From contig CAMYJA010000007.1 in the NCBI GenBank assembly GCA_947258705.1, positions 211,695-275,694 of the forward strand: 64,000 nucleotides of DNA, given 5' to 3'. Each line of letters begins with the position of its first letter. The stretch's first letter is position 1. The DNA is from an uncultured Hyphomicrobiaceae bacterium. Its GTDB lineage: Bacteria; Pseudomonadota; Alphaproteobacteria; Rhizobiales; CAMYJA01. Below the pieces are notes generated by a model that was not told the DNA's origin, did no database searches, and saw only the letters and a list, made by a program, of their open reading frames with translations. Of this stretch, positions 1,534 to 61,443 are shown piece after piece. A program made the translations under genes and the position numbers.

Positions 1534-3771
1534 ATGACAGAGGCCGCAATAGACATTGAAAAAGAAACAGGTTCCGCGATTACGCCGGAACTCGTGGCCG
1601 AGCACGGTCTGACGACGGACGAATATGACCGCCTGCTCGAAATTATCGGACGCGAACCGAGTGTCACGGAGCTCGGCATTTTCTCGGTTATGTGGTCCGA
1701 ACACTGCTCCTATAAATCATCGCGTTTCTGGCTGAAAAAGCTTCCCACGACCGGTCCGCAGGTCATTTGCGGCCCCGGCGAGAACGCAGGCGTCGTCGAT
1801 CTCGGCGATGGCGATGCGGCGATTTTCAAAATGGAAAGCCATAATCATCCCTCCTATATCGAACCCTATCAGGGGGCGGCCACGGGTGTCGGCGGCATCA
1901 TGCGCGATGTCTTCACAATGGGTGCGCGCCCCATAGCCAATATGAACGCGCTCAGATTCGGTTCGCCGGATCATCCGAAAACCAGGCATCTTGTCTCGGG
2001 AGTGGTCGCGGGTATCGGCGGATACGGCAATTGCATCGGCGTTCCCACTGTTGGCGGAGAGACCAATTTCGATGCGCGTTACAACGGTAATATTCTCGTC
2101 AACGCCATGTGCGTGGGGCTCGCGAAGACAGACAATATTTTCTATTCGGCCGCCAAGGGCGTCGGGTTGCCGGTGGTCTATGTCGGATCAAAAACCGGCC
2201 GCGACGGCATTCACGGCGCAACCATGGCATCGGCCGAGTTTGACGACGATACGGACGAGAAACGCCCGACGGTTCAGGTCGGCGACCCCTTCACCGAGAA
2301 ACTTCTAGTCGAGGCCTGTCTCGAGCTGATGGCAACGGACATGATCATTGCCATTCAGGACATGGGAGCCGCGGGGCTGACTTCCTCATCTGTCGAGATG
2401 GCGGACAAGGGCGGGGTCGGCTTCAACCTCGATCTCGACAAGGTTCCACAGCGCGAAGCCAATATGACGGCTTATGAAATGATGCTGTCCGAAAGCCAGG
2501 AACGCATGCTGATGGTTCTGCGCCCCGGCACCGAGCAGGCGGCAGAGGAGATCTTCAGGAAATGGGATCTCGATTTCGCAATTGTCGGCGAAACCACGGA
2601 TTCGGGCCGGCTCATCGTTTCGCATTCCTCTGAAGGCGGCGTCGTGGCCGACCTTCCCGTGGCGAAACTCGCCGATTCCGCGCCCGTCTATGAGCGCCCC
2701 TGGGTGAAGACGACTCCCCCCGAGACGCTCGATCCGAAAGATGTGAAAACCCCCGACAGCCTCCTTGGCGCACTCGCGCAGATGATGGGCTCGCCCCATC
2801 TCTGCTCAAGGCGCTGGATTTGGGAGCAATATGATCACATGGTGATGGCCGACACGGTGGCGCGGCCGGGCGGCGATGCCGCCATGGTCCGCGTGCACGG
2901 CACGAATAAGGGCCTTGCCATATCCTGCGATGTGACGCCGCGCTATACCCAGGCCGATCCTTATGAGGGCGGCAAGCAGGCAGTGACGGAATGTTGGCGC
3001 AACCTGACAGCTACAGGCGCCAAACCGCTCGCCATTACCGACTGTCTGAACTTCGGCAATCCGGAGCGGCCCGAGATCATGGGGCAGTTCGTCGGCGCCA
3101 TCGAGGGTATGGCTGAAGCCATTTCGGCACTCGACTTCCCGGTCGTCTCGGGCAATGTGTCGCTTTACAACGAAACCCAGGGCGAGGCCATTCCGCCCAC
3201 ACCCGCCATTGGCGGCATCGGCCTTATCGACGATGTAGCGAAACGGGCGAATATAGCTCTCACGGGTTCGGGCGACCGGCTGATCGTGATCGGTGCAAAC
3301 AAGGGACATCTCGGCCAGTCGATTTATCTCGATGTGATTGCGGAAGATGCAAAGGGCGCGCCGCCGCGCGTCAATCTGGCGGATGAAATCAAGGCCGGGA
3401 ACATGGTGCGCAGCCTTATTCATGCGGGCAAGGTCCGGGCCGTGCACGATGTCAGCGACGGCGGTCTTCTCGTCGCCATAGCGGAAATGGCCCTTGCCGG
3501 TGGCACCGGCGCCCATTTGAACGTTTATGAGGGCGATCTCCCGGCCCATGCCTTCTGGTTCGGGGAAGATCAGGGACGTTATGTTCTGGCCGTTCCAATG
3601 CAGAATGTGGACAGCATTCTCGATCAAGCCCGCGCGCTCGCCCTACCCGCCCTGAAAGTGGGACGGACCGGGGGCGACAAGCTCAGCATCGAGGAATCGG
3701 GCGGCATCGCCCTGTCTGAGCTTCGCGAAGCCCATGAAGGCTGGTTGCCAAACTACATGGAGATAAGCTAA
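1534..3771 (+). CDS. purL: FGAM synthase subunit PurL
   Basis: [20 protein letters not shown] and SESQERM motifs; 745 aa small-type PurL. Confidence 0.98.
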
Positions 3772-4186: not shown

Positions 4187-4271
4187 CCTTGTCAAATAAT
4201 CTGTCTTATCAATAAATTCGATTATTAAATTTCCCCCTCCCCTCACCCGGGGCTCAATACGGAGTAAAGAA

Positions 4272-5275: not shown

Positions 5276-6406
5276 ATGGCGGCACTCGAGACATTCATTC
5301 GCGTCACTAGGCCCTATCTTCTTCACGCGTGCCTATTGGAAATCCTGTTCAGCACCCTTGTCGTGTTGTATGTCCAGTCCCAACCGGCCCATTCCGATGA
5401 CGACTGGGCCCGGCACGCGCTTGAGCGCAGCCTGCATCCGCCCATCGGGCTACCCGAGTTGAAAGTCCCGAAAAGCGACCCCCTCACTGCGGCAAAAATC
5501 GGCCTGGGCGCCAAGCTTTTCTTTGACGACCGCCTGTCACGCGACAATTCCATGTCCTGCGCCTCTTGTCATGTTCCCGAACAGGGCTTTACCAGCAATG
5601 ACACGCCCACTGCCACGGGAGTTGGGGGCCGTGCTCTGCGCCGAAACGCGCCGAGCCTTTTCAATGTCGGTTATATGAAACGCCTGTTTCATGACGGACG
5701 CGAGGGGGACCTTTCCGCTCAGGTCTGGGGGCCTCTCCTTTCACCGCTGGAAATGGCCAATGCGTCGCCCTCGGAAATCATTGCCAGGATCAATAGCCTC
5801 AGGGACTATCGCGGTCTCTTTCAAACGGCCTATGGCCGCCCCGCAGACGCACGCAATCTCGGTCAGGCCCTGGCCGCCTATCAGCGCAGCCTGCTGTCGG
5901 CGAATGCGCCCTTCGACCGCTGGCGGCTTTTTGGTGAGGCGGACGCGATGCCATTGAGCGCCAGGCGCGGATTTTCACTGTTCACGGGAAAGGGCGGTTG
6001 CGCCCGGTGTCACACTGTCGAGGATGGTTATGCGCTTTTTACCGATCATCAGTATTACAATACCGGCATCGGTGCACAGTCGGCCGCGGGCGGTGGCGCT
6101 ATGGGCGATTTAGGCCGGATGGCGGTCAGCCGGGACCTCGCGGACATCTACCGCTTCAAGACGCCGGGCTTACGCAACGTCGCCCTCACCGCACCCTATA
6201 TGCATGATGGCTCGATCGCCACTCTCAAGGATGCGGTCAGGTTTTACAACAGGGGAGGTGCCGCCAATCCCGGTCTGCACGCCTCGATCAAGCCGCTTGG
6301 GCTCAACGATCGGGAGATCGACGATCTCGTCGCCTTTCTCCAGGCGCTGACGGGCAGCAATGTCGATGCGCTTATATCAGAGGCCCGCAATGCGTTTGAC
6401 CGCTAG
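5276..6406 (+). CDS. Di-heme cytochrome c peroxidase / MauG family protein
   Basis: Two CxxCH motifs (CASCH, CARCH); LFFD.RLS, RNAPS and FKTPGLRNVALTAPYMHDGS motifs; start uncertain (ORF opens at 5186). Confidence 0.9.
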   Translation: MAALETFIRVTRPYLLHACLLEILFSTLVVLYVQSQPAHSDDDWARHALERSLHPPIGLPELKVPKSDPLTAAKIGLGAKLFFDDRLSRDNSMSCASCHVPEQGFTSNDTPTATGVGGRALRRNAPSLFNVGYMKRLFHDGREGDLSAQVWGPLLSPLEMANASPSEIIARINSLRDYRGLFQTAYGRPADARNLGQALAAYQRSLLSANAPFDRWRLFGEADAMPLSARRGFSLFTGKGGCARCHTVEDGYALFTDHQYYNTGIGAQSAAGGGAMGDLGRMAVSRDLADIYRFKTPGLRNVALTAPYMHDGSIATLKDAVRFYNRGGAANPGLHASIKPLGLNDREIDDLVAFLQALTGSNVDALISEARNAFDR

Positions 6407-7347: not shown

Positions 7348-7986
7348 TCAGGATGGTTTTTTGAGGGAATTCAGATAGGCCTCGATCTGTTCCTCGACCT
7401 TTTTTCTCTGTATTTCGGTGCAGGTCTTCTTGTTGGCCGGTGCGCGCTCATTCACGACCACTTCCTTCTCGCCTTCATTCTCGGTGACCTTAACGTTACC
7501 GGTCAGCCACATCACCGTGAAAAGGTGCAATTGGCTGATATACAGAAGCTGCTGATCGGTCCATTTTTTCTTGTCGACCTCAACGCGCATCATGCCGCGG
7601 TAATTGGCGGCCTGCGCCTCGATCAATTTGCAGATCTGGGCATGGGCGGACAGGCGCGCCACCTGTATGACGTTGCGCGCTACATCCGTCGGAACCATGA
7701 CGTCCTTGGGCTTTTTCTTGTCCACCTCGATCACTTTTCCGGTCTGGGTGGTGAATTTGCTGGGAAGGATTGACCAGGCATAGTTCATCAATACCTTGAC
7801 CGAGCGCTCGGACAGTTCCTTGGCCTCGGCAAATTGCGCCGTCCCGACCATCACAGTAAACATCATGGTGCCGGCCAAAACAGCAGGCACTGCTATTTTA
7901 TTTAATTTTTTCAACAAGTTACTTATCTCACTCGTCCCCGATAATTTCAGCGTCATCATACATTGCCGCATTACAAAAACAATCAT
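7348..7986 (-). CDS. Hypothetical exported protein
   Basis: 212-aa ORF with a signal-peptide-like segment (AVLAGTMMFTVMVGTAQFAEA); true start probably downstream of 7986. Confidence 0.7.
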   Translation of the reverse strand: MIVFVMRQCMMTLKLSGTSEISNLLKKLNKIAVPAVLAGTMMFTVMVGTAQFAEAKELSERSVKVLMNYAWSILPSKFTTQTGKVIEVDKKKPKDVMVPTDVARNVIQVARLSAHAQICKLIEAQAANYRGMMRVEVDKKKWTDQQLLYISQLHLFTVMWLTGNVKVTENEGEKEVVVNERAPANKKTCTEIQRKKVEEQIEAYLNSLKKPS

Positions 7987-20094: not shown

Positions 20095-20730
20095 TCAGCT
20101 CGGAATTGCCTCGCCGCGATAGTGAAAGCCGATCAACGCCGGCGTATGGGGCAATGTGTAATTCTCCAGACTGGATATCTCGAAGCCCGCGTCTTGAATC
20201 AGCCCGGCAATGTTGCGGTTGAGGTTGCAGCCGCCCGCGAGTTTCTTCCATAGCGGATTCAGGCGGTCCTGCCATTTGACGGTTCCGGGATTTGTCGAGC
20301 GGCCATGCTCGCAGAAAAGAAGGCGGCCGCCCGGCTTTAAAACACGACGGATTTCGGCCAGAGCCAGTTCGGGACGCGGGATTGTGCAGAAACTGTAGGT
20401 CACGAGCGCCGTGTCGGCGCTGGCCGTCTCGAGCGACATGTCCTCGGCGCTTTCCTGCCGGACCTCGATTTCGAAATCCGCATTGTCCCATCTCTTTCTG
20501 CCGATTTCATTGAGCTTGGGATCCGGGTCGATACCGATGACCGCCCTGACCTTGCCGGGATCGTAATGGGGAACGTTTAAACCCGATCCTATGCCCACTT
20601 CGAGCACCACGCCCGCCGCTTTAGGCACGATCTTGCGCCGCTGTTCAGCGATCACGCCGAGCGAACAGGCGCCATGCACGAGATAGGGCGCGATATGTCG
20701 GCTGTAAAAGCCGGGTTTCGATGGGCACAT
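20095..20730 (-). CDS. Class I SAM-dependent methyltransferase
   Basis: VLEVGIGSGLN motif I; RVLKPGGRLLFCEHG motif. Confidence 0.92.
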   Translation of the reverse strand: MCPSKPGFYSRHIAPYLVHGACSLGVIAEQRRKIVPKAAGVVLEVGIGSGLNVPHYDPGKVRAVIGIDPDPKLNEIGRKRWDNADFEIEVRQESAEDMSLETASADTALVTYSFCTIPRPELALAEIRRVLKPGGRLLFCEHGRSTNPGTVKWQDRLNPLWKKLAGGCNLNRNIAGLIQDAGFEISSLENYTLPHTPALIGFHYRGEAIPS

Positions 20731-20805
20731 GGGCGTCTTCCCGTCGGTGCGTTGAGAAATGTACGACGATCAGCTTCTGATATGGGGCGCCTCCGCGCTT
20801 TTGGC

Positions 20806-20978
20806 AAATGGCGGGTGCATTGGGGACAGCATTGGTGGAGGGCAGCATCGATTAAGGGCCGTTAACCGCCGGGTGCCATCTCAGTCCTTTGCGCGAATGG
20901 CCTCCGGTTCCGCTCAAGATGCAAAACCAGCCGATTGAGGTTTTACGTTGCAAGGGCTGTTCGTCACACTAAGCAGAA
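20806..20978. repeat. ~170-bp direct repeat, copy 1 (ends in a degenerate double-palindrome site)
   Basis: Aligns by eye with 24173-24351 with scattered substitutions; CCTTTGCGCGAATGGCCTCCGGTTCCGCTCA is identical in both. Confidence 0.95.
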
Positions 20979-21784
20979 ACCGGAAGTCGCAATGTAACCG
21001 TTGCTCCTTTTTCAGGTCCGTCACTGCATACATAAAGCGCGCCCTGGTGCATTTCCGCGATACGAATAACGGACCACAATCCGAGCCCCGTACTCTTTTC
21101 GCCGCCAGTGGGGCGGGCAGATAGTTTTTGAAACGGCCGTCCGAAGTGAACCAAATCATCGGCTGTAAAACCTTGTCCCTGGTCTCGTATATGGATGAGG
21201 ACGGAGCTTTTCACGCGTCTGATCTCACAGCAAATATGCGTGCCGCACCGTGAATATTTGACGGCGTTGCCGATCAGATTGTCAATTGCTTCCACGAGCA
21301 ACATCTCGTTACAATTAACCAGACCAGCGTGACCGCTAATAGATATGGAGATCCGTTTTTTTTGCGCATTGTCCAAACTTAATTCGACGGCAGCAGCAAC
21401 GAGATCTTTCAACTGACAGGCTTCGAAGGCCATTGGATCTTTGCCGCCCCGAGCAATATCGATAAGTCGTTGCAGCATACCCTCAACCCGGTCCGCTGCA
21501 CGAAGACCGCGATCCAGGATCCTCTCCCTGTTGCGCAAATTGTCGTCCTGAGGTTTTCTGGCCAGAATCTCCAAAACAGATATGATACATGTTAGCGAGT
21601 TGCGTAAATCATGCGCGGTGATCGTCGCAAATTCCAACATTTCATTTTGTTGGTGCCACTGGTTGTCGGCAGCGTTTCCGTGACGCGACGGGCTGGTAAG
21701 ACCGGGATAAGATACCCGCTCATTAGAGCTGTTAATGTCGTGCGGTCTTTGAAGTTGTTCAAACATTCTTCTGGTCCAGGTCAC
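20969..21784 (-). CDS. Histidine kinase with HisKA and HATPase but no evident sensor domain
   Basis: H box AHDLRN, N box NLIGNAVKY, DQGQG and STGLGL motifs. Confidence 0.85.
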   Translation of the reverse strand: MTWTRRMFEQLQRPHDINSSNERVSYPGLTSPSRHGNAADNQWHQQNEMLEFATITAHDLRNSLTCIISVLEILARKPQDDNLRNRERILDRGLRAADRVEGMLQRLIDIARGGKDPMAFEACQLKDLVAAAVELSLDNAQKKRISISISGHAGLVNCNEMLLVEAIDNLIGNAVKYSRCGTHICCEIRRVKSSVLIHIRDQGQGFTADDLVHFGRPFQKLSARPTGGEKSTGLGLWSVIRIAEMHQGALYVCSDGPEKGATVTLRLPVSA

Positions 21785-21898
21785 CGGGCTTATTCGAAAA
21801 TTATTTAGCCGGGTGGGGGTTTCTGTTTTCGGTCATTATCAGTATTCGAGAGCAGCGCAGACGCTGTCTGTTAACTCCCGGATTTTCCGGGATTAGAT

Positions 21899-22249
21899 TC
21901 ACAACAACGCTCTCGGCGGTATGCACGGACTGGCTCGATGCTGTTCAAAATCATCTGATTGCCATGGGGCGCAACCTGTCGGCTTCAATTTTTGCGTCGA
22001 TTTGGATTTGCTGACGATCAGCCGGGCGGCATACCGCAATCCGTCGAGATCGATGTCGTGGGATTCGCTTGCGGCGAGAAGGAAAATGAGACCAAACGCC
22101 CGCAGAACAATTTTGAAACCGGACCTCTCGCGCGCGGTCCTCGCGATCGAGGTCGCGACCGGTGTCTCCACGGTCCGTGCAGTCTCGTCCATGCGTCGTG
22201 CGATCTGATCTTTACATAGCTCGGGATAGACTTTTGCCGGGTCAAACAT
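21899..22249 (-). CDS. Hypothetical protein divergent from LysR
   Basis: 116-aa ORF with AAGG-type RBS upstream; lies behind a LysR box. Confidence 0.5.
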   Translation of the reverse strand: MFDPAKVYPELCKDQIARRMDETARTVETPVATSIARTARERSGFKIVLRAFGLIFLLAASESHDIDLDGLRYAARLIVSKSKSTQKLKPTGCAPWQSDDFEQHRASPCIPPRALL

Positions 22250-22331
22250 TACCTTGTTCCTTGTCAGGTTTGTCGTGACCCAAATATGCGACCGTCTACA
22301 TCTAAACGGAAATACCGATTAGGTCTGAATT

Positions 22332-22350
22332 TGATAGCTAACGTCTATCA
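22332..22350. promoter_or_regulatory. LysR-type operator TGATAG-N7-CTATCA (T-N11-A)
   Basis: Perfect 6-bp arms between the divergent genes. Confidence 0.7.
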
Positions 22351-22410
22351 GACCGTCGGTGACATGATGCTTGACAAAAACTGCCGTCCCGAAGGGAGTT
22401 TTTCAAACCA

Positions 22411-23301
22411 ATGGAAATGCATCAAATCAGGTATTTTTTGGCAGTTTGCCAAACCCTCAATTTTACGCGTGCTGCAGAAGAATGTAATGTTGCACAGCCG
22501 TCGTTGACCCGCGCGATCAAAAAACTTGAGGCCGAACTTGGAGGCGAGCTTTTTTTGCGCGAACGCGCCCGAACGCATATCTCTGAACTTGGCCGGACGA
22601 TGCAGCCACTCCTTGCCAAGAGCTATGAAAGCGTACTGACGGCAAAGTTGCAGGCTGAACAATATAACAAGGTGGAGATCGCGCATCTCAGGCTTGGAGT
22701 GTCGCGCAGTGTCAATGCCGGCATTCTGATGACCGCACTGAAAGAGCTTAATGCAGCCCTGCCCGAGCTTGAGATACATCTTGTCCGGGGCTGCGCCGAC
22801 GAACTTGAAAAACTTCTCGAGGAGGGTGCGATTGAGCTCGCGATCACGGCAAAGGACGAACCCGATTGGTCGCGCATCGATCACTGGCCGTTGTTTTCGG
22901 AGGATTTCAAGGTGGCGATGAGCGCGGAACACCCATTGGCCAATCAGAGTTCCATCAAGCTCAAACAAATTACCAAAGAGTGCGTCGTCAGGAGGACACA
23001 TTGCGAGCATAGCGCCGCATTCAATGCTTTACTCCGTGCGCACAACTTGTCGATCGAGCATAGCCATGAAACGGCAAACGAGACCGATCACAAAATCATG
23101 CTCCGTAATGGAATGGGAGTGGGTATGGTGCCCAATAGCGTAGCCCCATCCGGCGATGGCATTATCAAACTTCCCTTGGAAGATATCGAGGTGCGGCGCT
23201 CGCTTGTTCTTCTCGCTGTTGCGGGCCGGAAATATTCAGTGCCAGCAGAATTGCTTATCAAGCTGCTCAGATCTTCCGACTGGTCCGACTATGAAAATTG
23301 A
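22411..23301 (+). CDS. LysR family transcriptional regulator
   Basis: N-terminal HTH NFTRAAEECNVAQPSLTRAIKKLEAELG; 296 aa. Confidence 0.95.
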   Translation: MEMHQIRYFLAVCQTLNFTRAAEECNVAQPSLTRAIKKLEAELGGELFLRERARTHISELGRTMQPLLAKSYESVLTAKLQAEQYNKVEIAHLRLGVSRSVNAGILMTALKELNAALPELEIHLVRGCADELEKLLEEGAIELAITAKDEPDWSRIDHWPLFSEDFKVAMSAEHPLANQSSIKLKQITKECVVRRTHCEHSAAFNALLRAHNLSIEHSHETANETDHKIMLRNGMGVGMVPNSVAPSGDGIIKLPLEDIEVRRSLVLLAVAGRKYSVPAELLIKLLRSSDWSDYEN

Positions 23302-23302
23302 G

Positions 23303-24001
23303 TCAGCTTGAGATACTGCCAAGTGCCGCCAGAATATCGTGTGGCGCCATGCGGGTGCGGAAGTCCGGGTGAACGTAATCCGCAATTATTTTTCCGTCCT
23401 GTGCAACGACATATGTGGCCGGCAGCGGCAAGAACATCCCATGATTTCCCTGGTCCGCGCCAAGATCGACGCCGAATTCCAGAAGTGCCTGATGCACAGC
23501 ATCTCCATTTGCCATCATCAATCCGCATGACAAAGCATAGCTGTTATCCATATCGCACAGTATCGCAAATGGCAGGTCAATGGCCTCCCGGAGCCGTTTT
23601 GCAGCAGGAACACGTTGCGGCGTTATCGATACAATTTCCGCGCCGAGGGCTTTAACCTCGTCATGAATGCCGGCAAGCCCCAGAAGCTCCAATTTGCAAT
23701 AGGGGCACCAATAGCCCCTGTTGAAACTTACAACGAGCGGGCCTGAGGCAAGCAGACTGTCAGAATTGACGAGACGCCCGTCAACATCCGGTAAAATGAA
23801 CTGGAGAAGTTTGGAGCCGGTCTTTATGGCATCCGACCCCGCGCCCGAAGATGTCAGCCGTTCCACAAGATCTTTGTACAGCGCGCCGAATTTTGGGAGA
23901 TTTTTATCCTCCCAGCGTGAAAATGCGGCAAGTTTCTCTGCCAGGGTAATGTCGAGGCATCTCAGCGCATCAAAATCGAGTTCCAAGGCTGTATCGCTCA
24001 T
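23303..24001 (-). CDS. Peroxiredoxin-like (AhpC/TSA) protein
   Basis: FNRGYWCPYC and LPLPATYVV motifs; start chosen at MSDTAL. Confidence 0.88.
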   Translation of the reverse strand: MSDTALELDFDALRCLDITLAEKLAAFSRWEDKNLPKFGALYKDLVERLTSSGAGSDAIKTGSKLLQFILPDVDGRLVNSDSLLASGPLVVSFNRGYWCPYCKLELLGLAGIHDEVKALGAEIVSITPQRVPAAKRLREAIDLPFAILCDMDNSYALSCGLMMANGDAVHQALLEFGVDLGADQGNHGMFLPLPATYVVAQDGKIIADYVHPDFRTRMAPHDILAALGSISS

Positions 24002-24172
24002 TTGCGGCCTATTTCCACTTGGGTGCACAACCAAACTTTAGTTGGTCGGCGATTTATGCAGGGTCAAACCTATAAAGCCCGGACGCCGGTGAAGCAATGG
24101 TCCTTTTCGTGGTCAATGGCGAATTACGAGCCAAAGAAATTTCGATGTCGGGCAGCTCTCTCGTCGCGGTAA

Positions 24173-24351
24173 AAATGGTGGGTGCATTGGGGGGCATTGG
24201 GGGCATTGGGGGAGGGCAGCACGATTAAGGGCCATTTACCGCCGGGTGCCGTCTCAGCCCTTTGCGCGAATGGCCTCCGGTTCCGCTCATGATGCAAAAC
24301 CAGCCGATTGAGGTTTTGCGCTGCAAGGGCTGTTCATGACCCAAGGCGGAC
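24173..24351. repeat. ~175-bp direct repeat, copy 2, ending in TGACCCAAGGCGGAC
   Basis: Direct repeat of 20806-20978; its last 15 bp are identical to 45065-45079. Confidence 0.95.
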
Positions 24352-24358
24352 CTTGCTG

Positions 24359-24697
24359 TCATTTCTCCACGAGCTTCTGAAGTCGTCCAATCGCATCATC
24401 CCATTGCTGCGACGCCCGTTCGAGATAGCGCTTTGCCTCGCCCAACCTGTTTGACTGGAGAGTGAAGCGAATTTCCCGCCCCACGCGTTCGCTTGTGACG
24501 AGGCGGGTTTGCTCCAAGATCGTCAGATGCTTGGTCACGCCCTGTCGGGAAAGTCCCATGCCACGTGTCAATTGCACAATCGATTGTGGTTGTCCGTTGG
24601 CGAGGCGCGCCAACAGCGCCAGGCGCTTTCTGTCGCCGAGAGCTGCGAACACTGGCGCGGCGGTGGTTGCGTTGAGTTCACGAGTGCGACGTGACAT
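24359..24697 (-). CDS. ArsR/SmtB family transcriptional regulator
   Basis: FAALGDRKR, LSRQGVTKHLTILE and RVGRE motifs. Confidence 0.92.
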   Translation of the reverse strand: MSRRTRELNATTAAPVFAALGDRKRLALLARLANGQPQSIVQLTRGMGLSRQGVTKHLTILEQTRLVTSERVGREIRFTLQSNRLGEAKRYLERASQQWDDAIGRLQKLVEK

Positions 24698-25130
24698 GGG
24701 CGGTAATGTTGTTTGCTTGAATGTCCCAGCCTTGGGTATTGCCACGCAGAACTTTAAGGCGACGAGGTTCAGGTAGCGCTTCGAAACCGCTTTCGGTGAT
24801 GGTCAAACGAGTTCCATCACTCGTTGGTTCAAGACGAAACTCGACGAGTGTCATTGGCTGTTCGGAAATATCAACACCCAGGTCTTCATCGAAGTCGTGC
24901 CATCTGAATGACAGAAACTCTTCAGGATCCAAACGCTCAACCACTGCTCGCCAAGGAAGGTGTTCGCAGCCCGGATAGGTCATCATGCCGGTGGACACGA
25001 CGCCAGGTTCGAAGGGTCCGTCTAACTTGACGCGGAACCATTGCCCAAACTCCAGGGGATCGGATAAGGCGCGCCAAACCCGAGCAACTGGCGCCGCCAA
25101 TTCGATTGTCTTGACGATACGATCGGCCAT
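24678..25130 (-). CDS. SRPBCC / AHSA1-like domain protein
   Basis: APVARVWRAL, TLVEFRLE...GTRLTITESGF and GW motifs; paired with ArsR. Confidence 0.92.
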   Translation of the reverse strand: MADRIVKTIELAAPVARVWRALSDPLEFGQWFRVKLDGPFEPGVVSTGMMTYPGCEHLPWRAVVERLDPEEFLSFRWHDFDEDLGVDISEQPMTLVEFRLEPTSDGTRLTITESGFEALPEPRRLKVLRGNTQGWDIQANNITAHVTSHS

Positions 25131-25134
25131 AAGA

Positions 25135-25195
25135 GCGACCTCTTGGTTGCTCATTACAGTATAATGTTGTTGGCAAATAGCAACCATAAGGTTGT
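25135..25195. promoter_or_regulatory. Two palindromic operators GC(A/G)ACC-N4-GGTTG(C/T), probably bound by the ArsR protein
   Basis: GCGACC-TCTT-GGTTGC at 25135-25150 and GCAACC-ATAA-GGTTGT at 25180-25195, directly upstream of the SRPBCC-arsR pair. Confidence 0.65.
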
Positions 25196-25554: not shown

Positions 25555-27297
25555 CTAATAGGTGTCGCCGAATATGGCCTGGAACAGGGTCTGCGGTTTG
25601 CGCCGCGTTCTTTGTGTAACCCGCACGTCGTCCACTTCGCGTTGGGCCTCAATGGCGATCAAATGCGCTTTGCCGTTAAGCGCGCCCGAGATGCGCCGGT
25701 CATGTCCGTAATAATCCCGGTAGGTCCGAAGCTCGCCCTTGTCGTCCACATGCGCCGTCATGTAGGTGATGTGCACGGGCACCTTGTTGTTGAACTCCAC
25801 GCTGTGGTTTGCGCCGGCTGCAAGAATCCTCTGGATTCGCCCCGGTCCCCAGCCCTTGTCGTGCTTGAGCAGGAGTTCGGCAAATTTGCGCGGGTTTTGC
25901 ACACGGATGCAACCGTGGCTGTAGGTGCGTACGTTCTGCGAGAAATGCTGCTTCGAGGATGTGTCGTGCATGTAGACCGCATGCTTGTTCGGGAACATGA
26001 ACTTCATATTGCCGAGAACATTGCTGCGGCCAGGCGGCTGATAAAAATGATATTGCTTCAGATCGGCATAGCTCCAGTTGACATATGACGGATCGATGGG
26101 GCGGCCGCGATATTTAACGCGGAGATTGTGACGCCTGAGGACGCCCGTGCTGCGCCGCAGGCTCGGCCAGATCTCCTTGTATTTGATCGATGGCGGGACA
26201 TTCCAGAAGGGATGAAAAACAATCCGCTCCATTTCGTCCGAAAAAATCGGCGTCTTGTTCTTGAGTTTTCCGACGACCACCCGTTCGGAATGAACGGGCT
26301 TGCCATTTTTCATGACGCGGAATCTGAATTCTGGAACGTTGACCTGAACATGAAGCTTGCCCATGTCCTCGGGCAACCAGCGCCAGCGTTCCATATTCAC
26401 CAATATGAGCTGGGTCCGGCTTCGGTTATTGGCATTCATTGCGCGCCGGGTACTGGGTCCAACAATGCCGTCGGGCTTCAGGCCATGTTTATTCTGGAAT
26501 GCGCGTACCGCATCTTCCAGGGCCGAGTCGTAGATTCTGGGGTTGAAGCGTTCCGCGCCGTATTCGTTTTTCGGCTGATCGACGCCGAGGCGTTGGCGTA
26601 GCAATTCGACATTGCGGTGGAGGTGTCCGGGCTTGAGGACCGGGCCCGACGGGATGTGTACAAGTCTCTGGGTGTCGTCTTTGAGGCGCAGTTCGAGAAA
26701 CTTCTGGCGCAGACGTTCGAATTGCTCATGTTTCGGATGCAGGTCCCTAAGAAAGGCCGCCTTGTCATCCGCCGCGTCAAACCGGTCCAGCACCTCGATT
26801 GGATCCGGCAGCGTCGGTCCGCGGTCGATCATTCTCGACAGCTTTCTCGGATCGAAGCGTCCGCCCTTTGCGAAACGCGCATATTTAAGCATGTTGAGGC
26901 TGAGCTGTTTCTCGGTCGCAATGCGCTGGTCCCGGGTCATGCCGCTTTCGGAGGCCGCAATTGACGGAAGGTCGAACTTGTTCGCTTCCAGGCCGTAATC
27001 GTCCGCCTGACTAATCTCCCGGATGATATCACGGGCGGCTTTGGTCAGCCCATTGTCCGTGGTCCAGTATGGCGCATTGTCACGCTTGTCATAAAACGCG
27101 CTCAAGGCTGCATATTCGAGTTTTTCCCTATCGTTCAGGCGCTTGTCGGCACGGTTGAGCTGATGACGGATCGACAATCCTATGGACTGCTCGGCATCCA
27201 GCATTTCTGCGGGTGCGGCGGGCTCAATCGACCAGGCAGGCGATAGCGCTGCGAAAAATATCGTCAAAGCTGACGCGGAACCGAGAATTTTCAACAT
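25555..27297 (-). CDS. L,D-transpeptidase (YcbB/LdtD family) with peptidoglycan-binding domain
   Basis: FQ.KHGL.PDGIVGP.T, NMERWRWLP, VYMHDT and SHGCIRV motifs. Confidence 0.93.
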   Translation of the reverse strand: MLKILGSASALTIFFAALSPAWSIEPAAPAEMLDAEQSIGLSIRHQLNRADKRLNDREKLEYAALSAFYDKRDNAPYWTTDNGLTKAARDIIREISQADDYGLEANKFDLPSIAASESGMTRDQRIATEKQLSLNMLKYARFAKGGRFDPRKLSRMIDRGPTLPDPIEVLDRFDAADDKAAFLRDLHPKHEQFERLRQKFLELRLKDDTQRLVHIPSGPVLKPGHLHRNVELLRQRLGVDQPKNEYGAERFNPRIYDSALEDAVRAFQNKHGLKPDGIVGPSTRRAMNANNRSRTQLILVNMERWRWLPEDMGKLHVQVNVPEFRFRVMKNGKPVHSERVVVGKLKNKTPIFSDEMERIVFHPFWNVPPSIKYKEIWPSLRRSTGVLRRHNLRVKYRGRPIDPSYVNWSYADLKQYHFYQPPGRSNVLGNMKFMFPNKHAVYMHDTSSKQHFSQNVRTYSHGCIRVQNPRKFAELLLKHDKGWGPGRIQRILAAGANHSVEFNNKVPVHITYMTAHVDDKGELRTYRDYYGHDRRISGALNGKAHLIAIEAQREVDDVRVTQRTRRKPQTLFQAIFGDTY

Positions 27298-27556
27298 GTT
27301 TTGCACCTTTTCGAATTGTGTGCACGCTAACGTAAAAGACATCGCTATATCCAGCATTGTTTGCGAAATTCCAAGGTATCCGCATGAGTTTTCAACATAG
27401 TGTTGCCATTCTGCAATTGGTAGGTTGGTACTGCAACTATTTTAAGCTGCATATACTGCTTATTGCGCGAAAGGTGGGCCCAGCAAAATGCTGGGCCCTG
27501 CGCGATTCCGACGGATGCAGAGGATTGTCGGGGGGACATGGCAATCTTCGTGGCGG

Positions 27557-37307: not shown

Positions 37308-37598
37308 GATCTTCTTGGCTCACGGCCTATTCCGCATGTTTCACATACGGGGCCTCCGGCAGGGCGGCACTAAGTGCCGATACAGACTAATAAGGTTGTA
37401 TAAAACTCTACCGACATGTTTATGCGGCTCTGTCGCTTTAGGTTGATAGGCGAGGTTTGCAGTTATCATTTTCTTATTTTCGTCTTTTCGCATGTTCCTA
37501 CCCTCCACAGTCATCCCGGCGTCCTGTCGGAGACGGGCAGACAAATAAGGACGGGGCCTAGACATCCTTAGGTTGGGTAATCGGTTGCCGAGATTTTA

Positions 37599-60377: not shown

Positions 60378-60810
60378 AGTGTCGACGTTTTCGTAAGGAT
60401 CTATTGTGCTCTTGAAGGAGACGGTGTTCCTATTTAGCGATCAAGAGACAGATTAGGGTATTCTACGAAGTGTAACCTTGACTCATTCAATCCCTGAGGA
60501 TCAAACGGCCATTGTAAAGCCCCTTTGTTATGGGCCATTTCTTGAAAGAGTTTCAGGTGCCGGAGGACGCATGTTAAGCGCCTGATGCGGACGGATGTGA
60601 TTGTACTGTCTGAGCGGAATGGCAGCCGATCTCAAAATTTAGACGTCAAGCGCTGATCGCGCAGAATTTCACCTTTGCCTGTTTCGCAGACTAATGCGTG
60701 GATCGCGTCTCTTCCTGTCATTCAATACACTTCACATGATGCACCTGAAGCCGACAAGGACGTTTGTTTTTAGAGATGATGGTCACTCACTCAACATGAG
60801 GAGTAGACCT

Positions 60811-61443
60811 ATGAAGTATTTTGAAAAACTTATCTCTAAGACGAACAGACGCGATCCCTGGAACAAAGGTAAGCTCATCGGCCCCAAGCCACCGCTTCGG
60901 CCAAAACATGTCTGGGCGGTTCGAACCAAACTTCAGATGGAACGCCGAACAAGGGACCTGGCCCTGTTCAATCTCGCGATCGACAGCAAACTCCGCGGCT
61001 GCGATGTTGTGCGGGTTCGTGTCGAGGACATTGCGCCTCGGGGATACGCGGTCGATCGTGCCATCGTTCGGCAGAGCAAGACCGGCCGACCGGTCAAGTT
61101 CGAGCTAACCGAGCAAACACGGGAGTCGCTGGACGACCACCTTCGAGAAGTGAGCCGTGAATGCGGGCAGTATCTCTTTCCGGGACGTGGAAAGGGCACG
61201 CACCTGACAACTCGTCAATATGCACGCTTGCTTGGCGACTGGCTCGCGAGCATAGGTCTTGATCCGTCGCTGTACGGCACGCATTCCCTGCGCCGTACAA
61301 AGGCTACGCTGATTTATAAGCGCACTGGGAACCTGCGCGCCGTCCAGCTTTTGCTGGGCCACTCGAAAATTGAGAGCACAGTTCGATATATAGGTATTGA
61401 GGTAGACGATGCTCTCGAAATCGCGGAACAGGTCGACATCTGA
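60811..61443 (+). CDS. Compact tyrosine recombinase/integrase (210 aa)
   Basis: Catalytic R (DSKLRGCD), K (QSKT), HxxR (HSLRRT), H (LLGH) and Y (TVRY); GAGGAG RBS. Confidence 0.95.
   Translation: MKYFEKLISKTNRRDPWNKGKLIGPKPPLRPKHVWAVRTKLQMERRTRDLALFNLAIDSKLRGCDVVRVRVEDIAPRGYAVDRAIVRQSKTGRPVKFELTEQTRESLDDHLREVSRECGQYLFPGRGKGTHLTTRQYARLLGDWLASIGLDPSLYGTHSLRRTKATLIYKRTGNLRAVQLLLGHSKIESTVRYIGIEVDDALEIAEQVDI

Follow-up and report, generated by a model that had tools for sequence, protein, structure and literature searches.

Background

In Campbell-type insertion, a circle that shares homology with the chromosome is inserted by a single crossover, and no dedicated recombinase is needed. In the attC sites of integron cassettes the core sites follow the sequences RYYYAAC (R'') and GTTRRRY (R'), and the size of the whole site ranges from 57 to 141 nt. 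For the sites where Rho is loaded on a transcript, a C-rich and G-poor composition is expected. In a review (PMC2704930), genomic islets are islands under 10 kb, atypical composition and flanking direct repeats are named among the features of islands, and the repeats are given as 16-20 bp long and perfect or almost perfect. In Escherichia coli, the e14 prophage is flanked by the intact icd gene and by the C-terminal fragment icdC (PMC13626634). In this work we analyzed a stretch of 64,000 nt (the window) from contig CAMYJA010000007.1 of an uncultured Hyphomicrobiaceae bacterium (GenBank assembly GCA_947258705.1, forward strand positions 211,695 to 275,694), in which two copies of a long non-coding direct repeat, R_A and R_B (together, R), bracket a block of about 3.2 kb. 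From these analyses we conclude that the arrangement R-block-R is most likely the scar left by the recombination of the block into the chromosome, a fairly ordinary event.

Results

R is a long, diverged direct repeat with two copies in the genome

The extent of the two copies, in positions of the window, is as follows.

20806..20977 (approximate), no strand: R_A, the left direct-repeat copy; the strict local alignment stops at 20962, and weaker similarity extends possibly to about 20985
20817..20842, plus strand: two diverged short units, GCATTGG(G/T)G, at the left end of R_A
24173..24350 (approximate), no strand: R_B, the right direct-repeat copy; the strict local alignment stops at 24335

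The repeat search reported a gapless direct pair of 129 nt (20849-20977 and 24222-24350, 90% identity) and a direct pair of 20 nt (20806-20825 and 24173-24192, 95% identity), divided by a short indel zone with a GCATTGGGG-like unit, of which R_A has two diverged instances and R_B three. The counterpart of this zone in R_B (24184-24215) consists of three GCATTGG(G/T)G units, which explains the indel of 7 nt; genome-wide, the motif is not enriched (21 + 10 occurrences). In the strict local alignment, 157 nt of R_A (20806-20962) are matched to 163 nt of R_B (24173-24335). The overall identity is 87-90%, both copies are non-coding, and they are in direct orientation. The identity profile has a core of 130 nt (20833-20962) at 90-100% identity and falls off toward both edges, and the copies have exact blocks of 31 and 27 nt in common. 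Their lengths are 172 and 178 nt and their left edges are sharp in the alignment, so that they agree with the equal length expected of the two repeats in a Campbell-type insertion.

When R was compared by BLAST with its own genome (2.77 Mb, 66 contigs), it was found at exactly two places, the second copy with an E value of 6.8e-55 and 89% identity; nhmmer with the option --max recovered the same two copies in the 66 contigs (E about 1e-62), and the next match had an E value of 0.67. No third, degenerate copy was found, including at the outer edge of the array. The GC content of the copies (56% and 60%) is like that of native spacers, and the spacers within the block have 45-51%.

Both copies lie next to the end of a gene. 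To the right of R_A is the stop codon of a histidine kinase gene (20969-20971, minus strand), and to the right of R_B that of an ArsR-family gene (24359-24361), 9 nt from the right end of the repeat. R_A begins at the kinase stop codon itself, because a metagenome relative (P0006, 73% identical) shows that the C-terminus of the kinase is native; the same relative backs a start of the kinase at MFEQ. The first-pass annotation of the window, made from the sequence alone, had described two long, diverged, non-coding direct repeats with the 3' end of a different cargo gene beside each copy. The repeats are as it described them, and the two gene ends are indeed present; one of them, that of the ArsR-family gene, lies outside the bracketed module.

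The enclosed block is compositionally foreign

Genes were assigned from the Pfam and NCBIfam matches of the open reading frames (ORFs) of the window, and their GC content at third codon positions (GC3) was compared with that of 1506 long ORFs of the genome (mean 0.656, standard deviation 0.059). The genes of the block and of its flanks are listed below.

20095..20730, minus strand: class I S-adenosylmethionine-dependent methyltransferase, left flank; native composition, in the recA-alaS-VWA syntenic block
20969..21766 (ORF 20969-21784), minus strand: histidine kinase (HisKA and HATPase_c in Pfam, without a sensor domain); its stop abuts R_A
21899..22249, minus strand: ORF of 116 aa with no recognised family, uncertain as a real gene
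22411..23301, plus strand: LysR-family regulator (Pfam), convergent with the peroxiredoxin-like gene
23303..24001 (ORF 23303-24034), minus strand: AhpC/TSA-Redoxin thiol peroxidase-like protein, here called peroxiredoxin-like (weak SelL-related match); likely start at the ATG at 24001
24359..24745, minus strand: ArsR/SmtB-family regulator, outside the bracketed module
24678..25187, minus strand: AHSA1/SRPBCC protein; its gene overlaps that of ArsR, GC3 at the 1.5 percentile, patchy distribution
25555..27357, minus strand: L,D-transpeptidase (LDT), right flank; native composition

The gene content read from the sequence, i.e. kinase, hypothetical protein, LysR and peroxiredoxin, agrees with Pfam, the hypothetical protein being the 116-aa ORF without a family, for which a search of a protein atlas gave no usable match. 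The GC content of the block is 51.7% and that of the flanks about 57%. GC3 is low for the kinase (z -2.40, 1.3 percentile), the peroxiredoxin-like gene (z -1.78, 3.9 percentile) and LysR (z -1.31, 9.0 percentile), and unremarkable for the 116-aa ORF (z -0.70); both flanking genes are typical (methyltransferase z +0.79, LDT z +0.52). The enclosed block is compositionally foreign for most of its genes, three of the four having a low GC3. The AHSA1 gene beyond R_B is equally atypical, so that the atypical stretch spans from R_A to AHSA1 and is wider than the module delimited in the first place; this gene probably belongs to the acquired stretch.

The distribution of these genes was analyzed in 150 other genomes of the order. 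The AHSA1-ArsR pair is present in 4 of them and the methyltransferase in 33, and no near homolog of the kinase was found (best match, 39%). In contigs of species genomes, 25 pattern matches to the kinase were obtained and none was confirmed; its one relative at 73% (a single cluster) comes from a metagenome contig. Convergent LysR and peroxiredoxin genes are kept as a pair at 7 of the 9 homologous loci in the order, the best protein identity being 53%, and since the pair is common in the order, the block itself is composite. Among plasmid records 55 match, all of them within LysR only and none within R; no phage record matches. A tblastn search of all seven genes against the genome returned distant paralogs only, located on other contigs and with at most 32% identity.

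The peroxiredoxin-like homologs of three genomes of the same order (G143, G102 and G057) have a single in-frame TGA, and the copy in the window is free of in-frame stops; the sequences suggest selenocysteine forms of the protein in those three genomes.

Synteny breaks at the block

To the left of R_A, alaS, recA, VWA and the methyltransferase form a conserved block; the VWA-methyltransferase adjacency is also seen in two other genomes (G008 and G140). The right-flank genes were found near the methyltransferase in none of the loci from 10 relatives. The gene just upstream of the methyltransferase differs among relatives, i.e. an FNR-like reductase in three, EamA in two and ETF-QO in one, and the FNR-like ortholog of the present genome is on a different contig. 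Judged from gene order, the synteny break falls exactly at the R-bracketed block. Family-level relatives from metagenomes were found for the methyltransferase (70-76%, 8 clusters), LDT (67-68%, 7 clusters) and the kinase (73%, 1 cluster); the contigs that carry them have no length in common, a weak proxy for linkage that leaves the positions of the genes on the contigs unaccounted for. These contigs measure 3,735 bp for the kinase relative, up to 27.9 kb for those of the methyltransferase (P0126-P0133) and up to 34 kb for those of LDT (P0246-P0252).

The present genome is the sole member of its family in the comparison collection. In 60 genomes of the order, R had no BLAST match, and in 400 its only matches were chance ones of 25-37 nt, in 7 of the 400 (E 0.001-0.01). 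Exact seeds were then taken from the two best conserved blocks of R. A scan of metagenome contigs with one of them, an 18-mer, yielded 54 chance loci, each similar over about 20-55 nt around the seed only; the best of them scored 15.7 bits vs 209-214 bits for true R copies. In viral contigs this 18-mer gave one chance locus and the other seed, a 19-mer, none; in contigs of species genomes the 19-mer gave five loci, in unrelated phyla, where the match extended over no more than about 28 nt. Copies of R with less than about 90% identity would go unnoticed in such seed scans, so that diverged ones may exist unseen.

An insertion with the same architecture is present on the same contig

Direct-repeat pairs elsewhere were collected from a comparison of the genome with itself, taking local and unique pairs with 1-8 genes in between. 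The clearest of them is on the contig of R but outside the window: a 223-nt duplication (92% identical; L120:1304-1526 and 7578-7800, i.e. G000:C7:120203-120425 and 126477-126699) bounds 6.3 kb and has the same architecture as the R-bracketed block. The repeat is the 3' end of an alpha/beta-hydrolase gene. The interior of this locus, L120, has eight ORFs (an asparaginase, an ATP-grasp ligase and six listed without a family) with GC3 z values of -1.4 to -3.65, and both flanking genes are at about +1. No recombinase family was matched in Pfam by the eight interior ORFs, and five of them have no family match of any kind.

The hydrolase is a core gene, present in 145 of the 150 other genomes. In 5 of 24 loci fetched from relatives, 52-171 nt separate it from a convergent AnmK gene and none of the interior genes is present; in the other 19, AnmK is not adjacent to it. 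Given this empty site, the L120 block is a true insertion. Both copies of the repeat are native-like (GC3 0.78 and 0.74); in all 24 loci the orthologs are closer to the copy in the intact gene, and among the 16 differing codons 12 are non-synonymous. By these comparisons, the fragment copy reads as a decayed version of the native gene end.

Further repeat-bounded arrangements were observed on other contigs, C37 among them. Contig C47 (6.1 kb) has a repeat of about 200 nt in three copies (L126:2073-2270, 3389-3597 and 5790-5969; 78-85% identical) that are spaced by 1.3 and 2.4 kb in an array-like manner, with one to three genes between them (an outer membrane protein (OMP) beta-barrel, a helix-turn-helix (HTH)-cupin regulator and a fasciclin protein). 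On C24, an 84-nt direct repeat (L122:1542-1625 and 4187-4270, 96% identical) with a terminator-like hairpin inside bounds a putative arsenic-resistance unit formed by an SBF/ACR3-type transporter, a low-molecular-weight phosphatase/ArsC-like protein and an ORF of 117 aa. On C26, a direct repeat of 168 nt (L121:1199-1366 and 3447-3604, 87% identical) begins within a DUF1015 gene, 66 nt short of its stop, and a DUF4437 gene and a PEMT/ICMT-type methyltransferase gene lie between the copies; the 66-nt coding part gives identical peptides from both copies, its 5 nucleotide differences all being synonymous by eye. On C2, a 69-nt AGGAATC-rich repeat (L124:1321-1389 and 3021-3089) is found on both sides of the core gene mnmE; this pair resembles repeated regulatory motifs and not an insertion scar, so that the repeat pairs of the genome are not all of one origin. 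No boundary motif is common to R and the other repeat pairs.

Dispersed repeats, known RNAs and coding sequences do not account for R

As the first-pass annotation stated, the module has no transposase: none is encoded by its four ORFs, and the three rve-type transposases of the genome (PF00665) are all on other contigs. No recombinase was found within 37 kb of R; the genome has four tyrosine-type recombinases (PF00589), the nearest at 60946-61392, and no serine recombinase (PF00239). No integron integrase was detected in the genome, the best TIGR02249 match reaching 83.8 bits vs a cut-off of 265. Near the end of the contig there are two tyrosine-recombinase genes, one at 60694-61443 of the window and the other past it, at G000:C7:277156-277632; this pair, about 37 kb away from R, may mark an integrated element.

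R does not behave as a miniature inverted-repeat transposable element (MITE) or other dispersed repeat, having only two copies, no terminal inverted repeats and flanks without a target-site duplication. The genome does hold a true dispersed, mosaic intergenic family, unrelated to R (33 high-scoring segment pairs on 11 contigs with one query of 171 nt), a member of which lies at 37310-37423, between the MscS and CoA-transferase genes. An origin of R from a tRNA or tmRNA gene was set aside since ARAGORN found 0 such genes in the 64-kb window, in agreement with what had been proposed from the sequence. Likewise, a known non-coding RNA was discarded: Rfam 15 gave 0 matches at the gathering score in the 64 kb and 0 at E values up to 10 in 20700-24450. 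The two identities named at the outset as contrary to the insertion proposal, a high-copy MITE and a known non-coding RNA, therefore do not apply, with two copies and 0 Rfam matches. The core sites RYYYAAC and GTTRRRY are absent from both strands of both copies and of their 30-nt flanks, as is a consistent pairing of the ends, and R was rejected as an attC site.

The folding energy of the two copies on both strands is not better than that of shuffled sequences (z +1.30, -0.42, -0.52 and +0.41), and between the copies there are 0 compensatory pairs on the plus strand and one on the minus strand, in a poorly aligned edge. None of the frames has a start codon and stays open in both copies; in the best frame, 7 differing codons are synonymous and 5 non-synonymous, counts that are uninformative, and the frame contains stops. 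A minus-strand ORF of 21 codons in R was examined and rejected as a conserved peptide, and so was a plus-strand ORF of 59 aa (20759-20938), which has no counterpart beside the methyltransferase of relatives and a low GC3. Promoters proposed by eye (sigma-54, extracytoplasmic function (ECF)-type, and a sigma-70-like TTGCCA-N17-CATATC over the left edge of R_A) were unconvincing, and a consensus scan of R for promoters gave nothing above the expectation from shuffles. No intrinsic terminator was found within R, and a G-quadruplex on the G-rich plus strand holds for R_B only.

Discussion

The origin of the repeat-bracketed block

We give about an even chance to the explanation that R is native-like and that its duplication came about as foreign DNA entered within it by recombination, the block now being fixed. 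R would ancestrally have been native-like intergenic DNA, i.e. the 3' flank of a minus-strand gene, and a foreign block of about 3.2 kb, with the peroxiredoxin-like gene, LysR, the 116-aa ORF and the kinase, would have recombined into the chromosome inside it. If a circular intermediate with a homologous R underwent a single crossover with the chromosome, the outcome would be R-insert-R in direct orientation, as in a Campbell-type insertion; an integrase borne by the element and later lost would be an alternative route to the same topology, provided that the element brought a copy of the target end with it, as in the case of e14. The copies may have diverged since the insertion or may have been different before it; R itself would not be mobile; the block, for its part, is probably fixed. 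That a circle was involved, that the crossover fell within R and that the events came in this order is what we infer. On the grounds of the composition of the block and the precedent of L120, the insertion at, or duplication of, one shared region that had been proposed in the first-pass annotation is plausible, though unproven. Its notion of a site-specific attachment region is unsupported, because neither a recombinase nor an att-like core, a third copy or a target-site duplication turned up; duplication by general recombination is at least as likely as one at a site-specific attachment region. The successive insertions that it also envisaged would fit the AHSA1 gene beyond R_B, atypical (1.5 percentile) and patchy (4/150), in terms of successive acquisitions, and they too are unproven.

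Several observations weigh against this explanation. No relative with a single R and without the block was seen, so that insertion at R is deduced and not observed; in the metagenome relatives there is no sign of linkage between the methyltransferase and LDT, which leaves a simple insertion between ancestral neighbours unsupported. The LysR-peroxiredoxin pair is frequent in the order, so that some of the block could have been inherited vertically and have an unusual composition, and the GC3 of the 116-aa ORF and of ArsR is not atypical. The repeat of the L120 precedent is coding and R is non-coding. In addition, R lies 0-9 nt from the stops of two unrelated genes, with a core at 90-100% identity and decaying edges, and the 3' third of its transcribed strand is strongly C-rich and G-poor. 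A repeat that is adjacent to stop codons and has a conserved core is unlike a neutral scar with random ends, and hints at a functional element of the 3' flank. The explanation that follows from this is that R is a cis-element of the minus-strand transcripts (a 3' untranslated region, a region of Rho-dependent termination or a 3'-derived small RNA), that its two copies were kept by selection after ArsR and the kinase, and that the bracketing is incidental. The start of each copy 0-9 nt past a stop codon, the conserved core of 130 nt with decaying edges, and the counts of C and G per 40 nt in the minus-strand 3' third (18 C and 5 G in R_A, 22 C and 3 G in R_B) favour it, as does a predicted consensus fold in which no pair is broken by a substitution; but the folding is no better than that of shuffles on either strand (z +1.30 to -0.52), compensatory changes number 0 on the plus strand and one on the minus strand (in the badly aligned edge), Rfam gave no match at E up to 10, no intrinsic terminator is present inside R, no homolog of R was found in any other genome searched, and the two copies still require a duplication event. 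We hold this explanation possible but rather doubtful; the insertion scar and the 3'-flank element are compatible with each other.

Other origins were weighed on the same evidence. A segmental duplication of the R region in situ, with the duplicated genes later lost or replaced and without any horizontal transfer, would agree with the native-like GC of both copies and with the decayed native gene end at L120 (24/24 loci; 12/16 codons non-synonymous), but it is unlikely, given that no gene to the left of R has a paralog to its right (the paralogs, at most 32% identical, are on other contigs) and that the enclosed genes are compositionally foreign. It is highly improbable that R is the recombination site of a cassette-type system, either a cluster of attC sites lacking an integron integrase (CALIN) or a new analogue, with the cassettes AHSA1-ArsR-R_B and Prx-LysR-ORF-kinase-R_A (Prx, the peroxiredoxin-like gene). 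It is true that two atypical units each end in R right after the last stop, that there is no transposase, and that similar repeat-bounded units, including the three-copy array of C47, occur elsewhere in the genome; however, neither RYYYAAC nor GTTRRRY is present on either strand, no hairpin exceeds the shuffles, R measures about 170 nt vs the 57-141 nt of attC sites, the genome lacks an integron integrase (83.8 bits vs the cut-off of 265), the other repeat pairs have no boundary motif in common with R, and no third copy is seen at the outer edge of the array. Only slightly more credible, and still very unlikely, is a stacking of cassettes at gene 3' flanks that is independent of any recombinase or dependent on one of the host, marked by R and the other repeat pairs (the C47 array included), where each acquired unit would carry or regenerate a long, sequence-specific 3' element as the next landing site. 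An assembly chimera, in which short exact blocks shared by the two versions of R served to join foreign reads, would be favoured by the draft state of the genome (66 contigs), the exact blocks of 31 and 27 nt common to both copies, and the differing composition of the enclosed block; two independent mis-joins would be needed inside a contig of 278 kb, the reported contamination is 0, and the copies differ by about 11% and are therefore not collapsed repeats, all of which makes this origin extremely unlikely.

If the explanation by insertion within R is true, the locus is one more small islet, through which redox and regulatory genes were gained at a synteny break; its only unusual feature would be that the boundary repeats are long (about 170 nt), diverged, native-like and without a recombinase. 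It opens no long-standing question, and a specialist would not be very surprised by it. With at least one proven insertion of the same anatomy and several candidates, the genome is a convenient natural case in which the entry of small blocks by a single crossover can be set against entry by an integrase.

Comparison with known systems

Like MITEs, R is short, non-coding and without a transposase; unlike them, it is present in only two copies and lacks both terminal inverted repeats and a target-site duplication. With attC sites and CALIN it has in common that non-coding elements recur behind the 3' ends of genes that are unrelated, forming a short array with no adjacent integrase, but R has neither the core motifs nor the hairpin, falls outside the attC size range, and is found in a genome without an integron integrase. 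The likeness to genomic islets lies in a block of a few kb with atypical composition, direct repeats and a synteny break, all of which are found here; in contrast, R, with about 170 nt, is some 10 times longer than the island repeats and about 11% diverged, and there is no tRNA target, integrase or mobility gene. The order homology-insert-homology in direct orientation, with a repeat as long as the shared segment, is that of a Campbell-type insertion, which is known mainly from plasmids, phages and laboratory constructs; here a circle and a donor would have to be supposed. The e14 prophage has its own site-specific recombination system, whereas the present locus has no recombinase and R is non-coding; in both cases, a native unit has its end duplicated, as a long and diverged direct repeat, on the two sides of the insert, and the L120 locus (C7:120k) has exactly the e14 anatomy, a hydrolase gene end plus a fragment of it.

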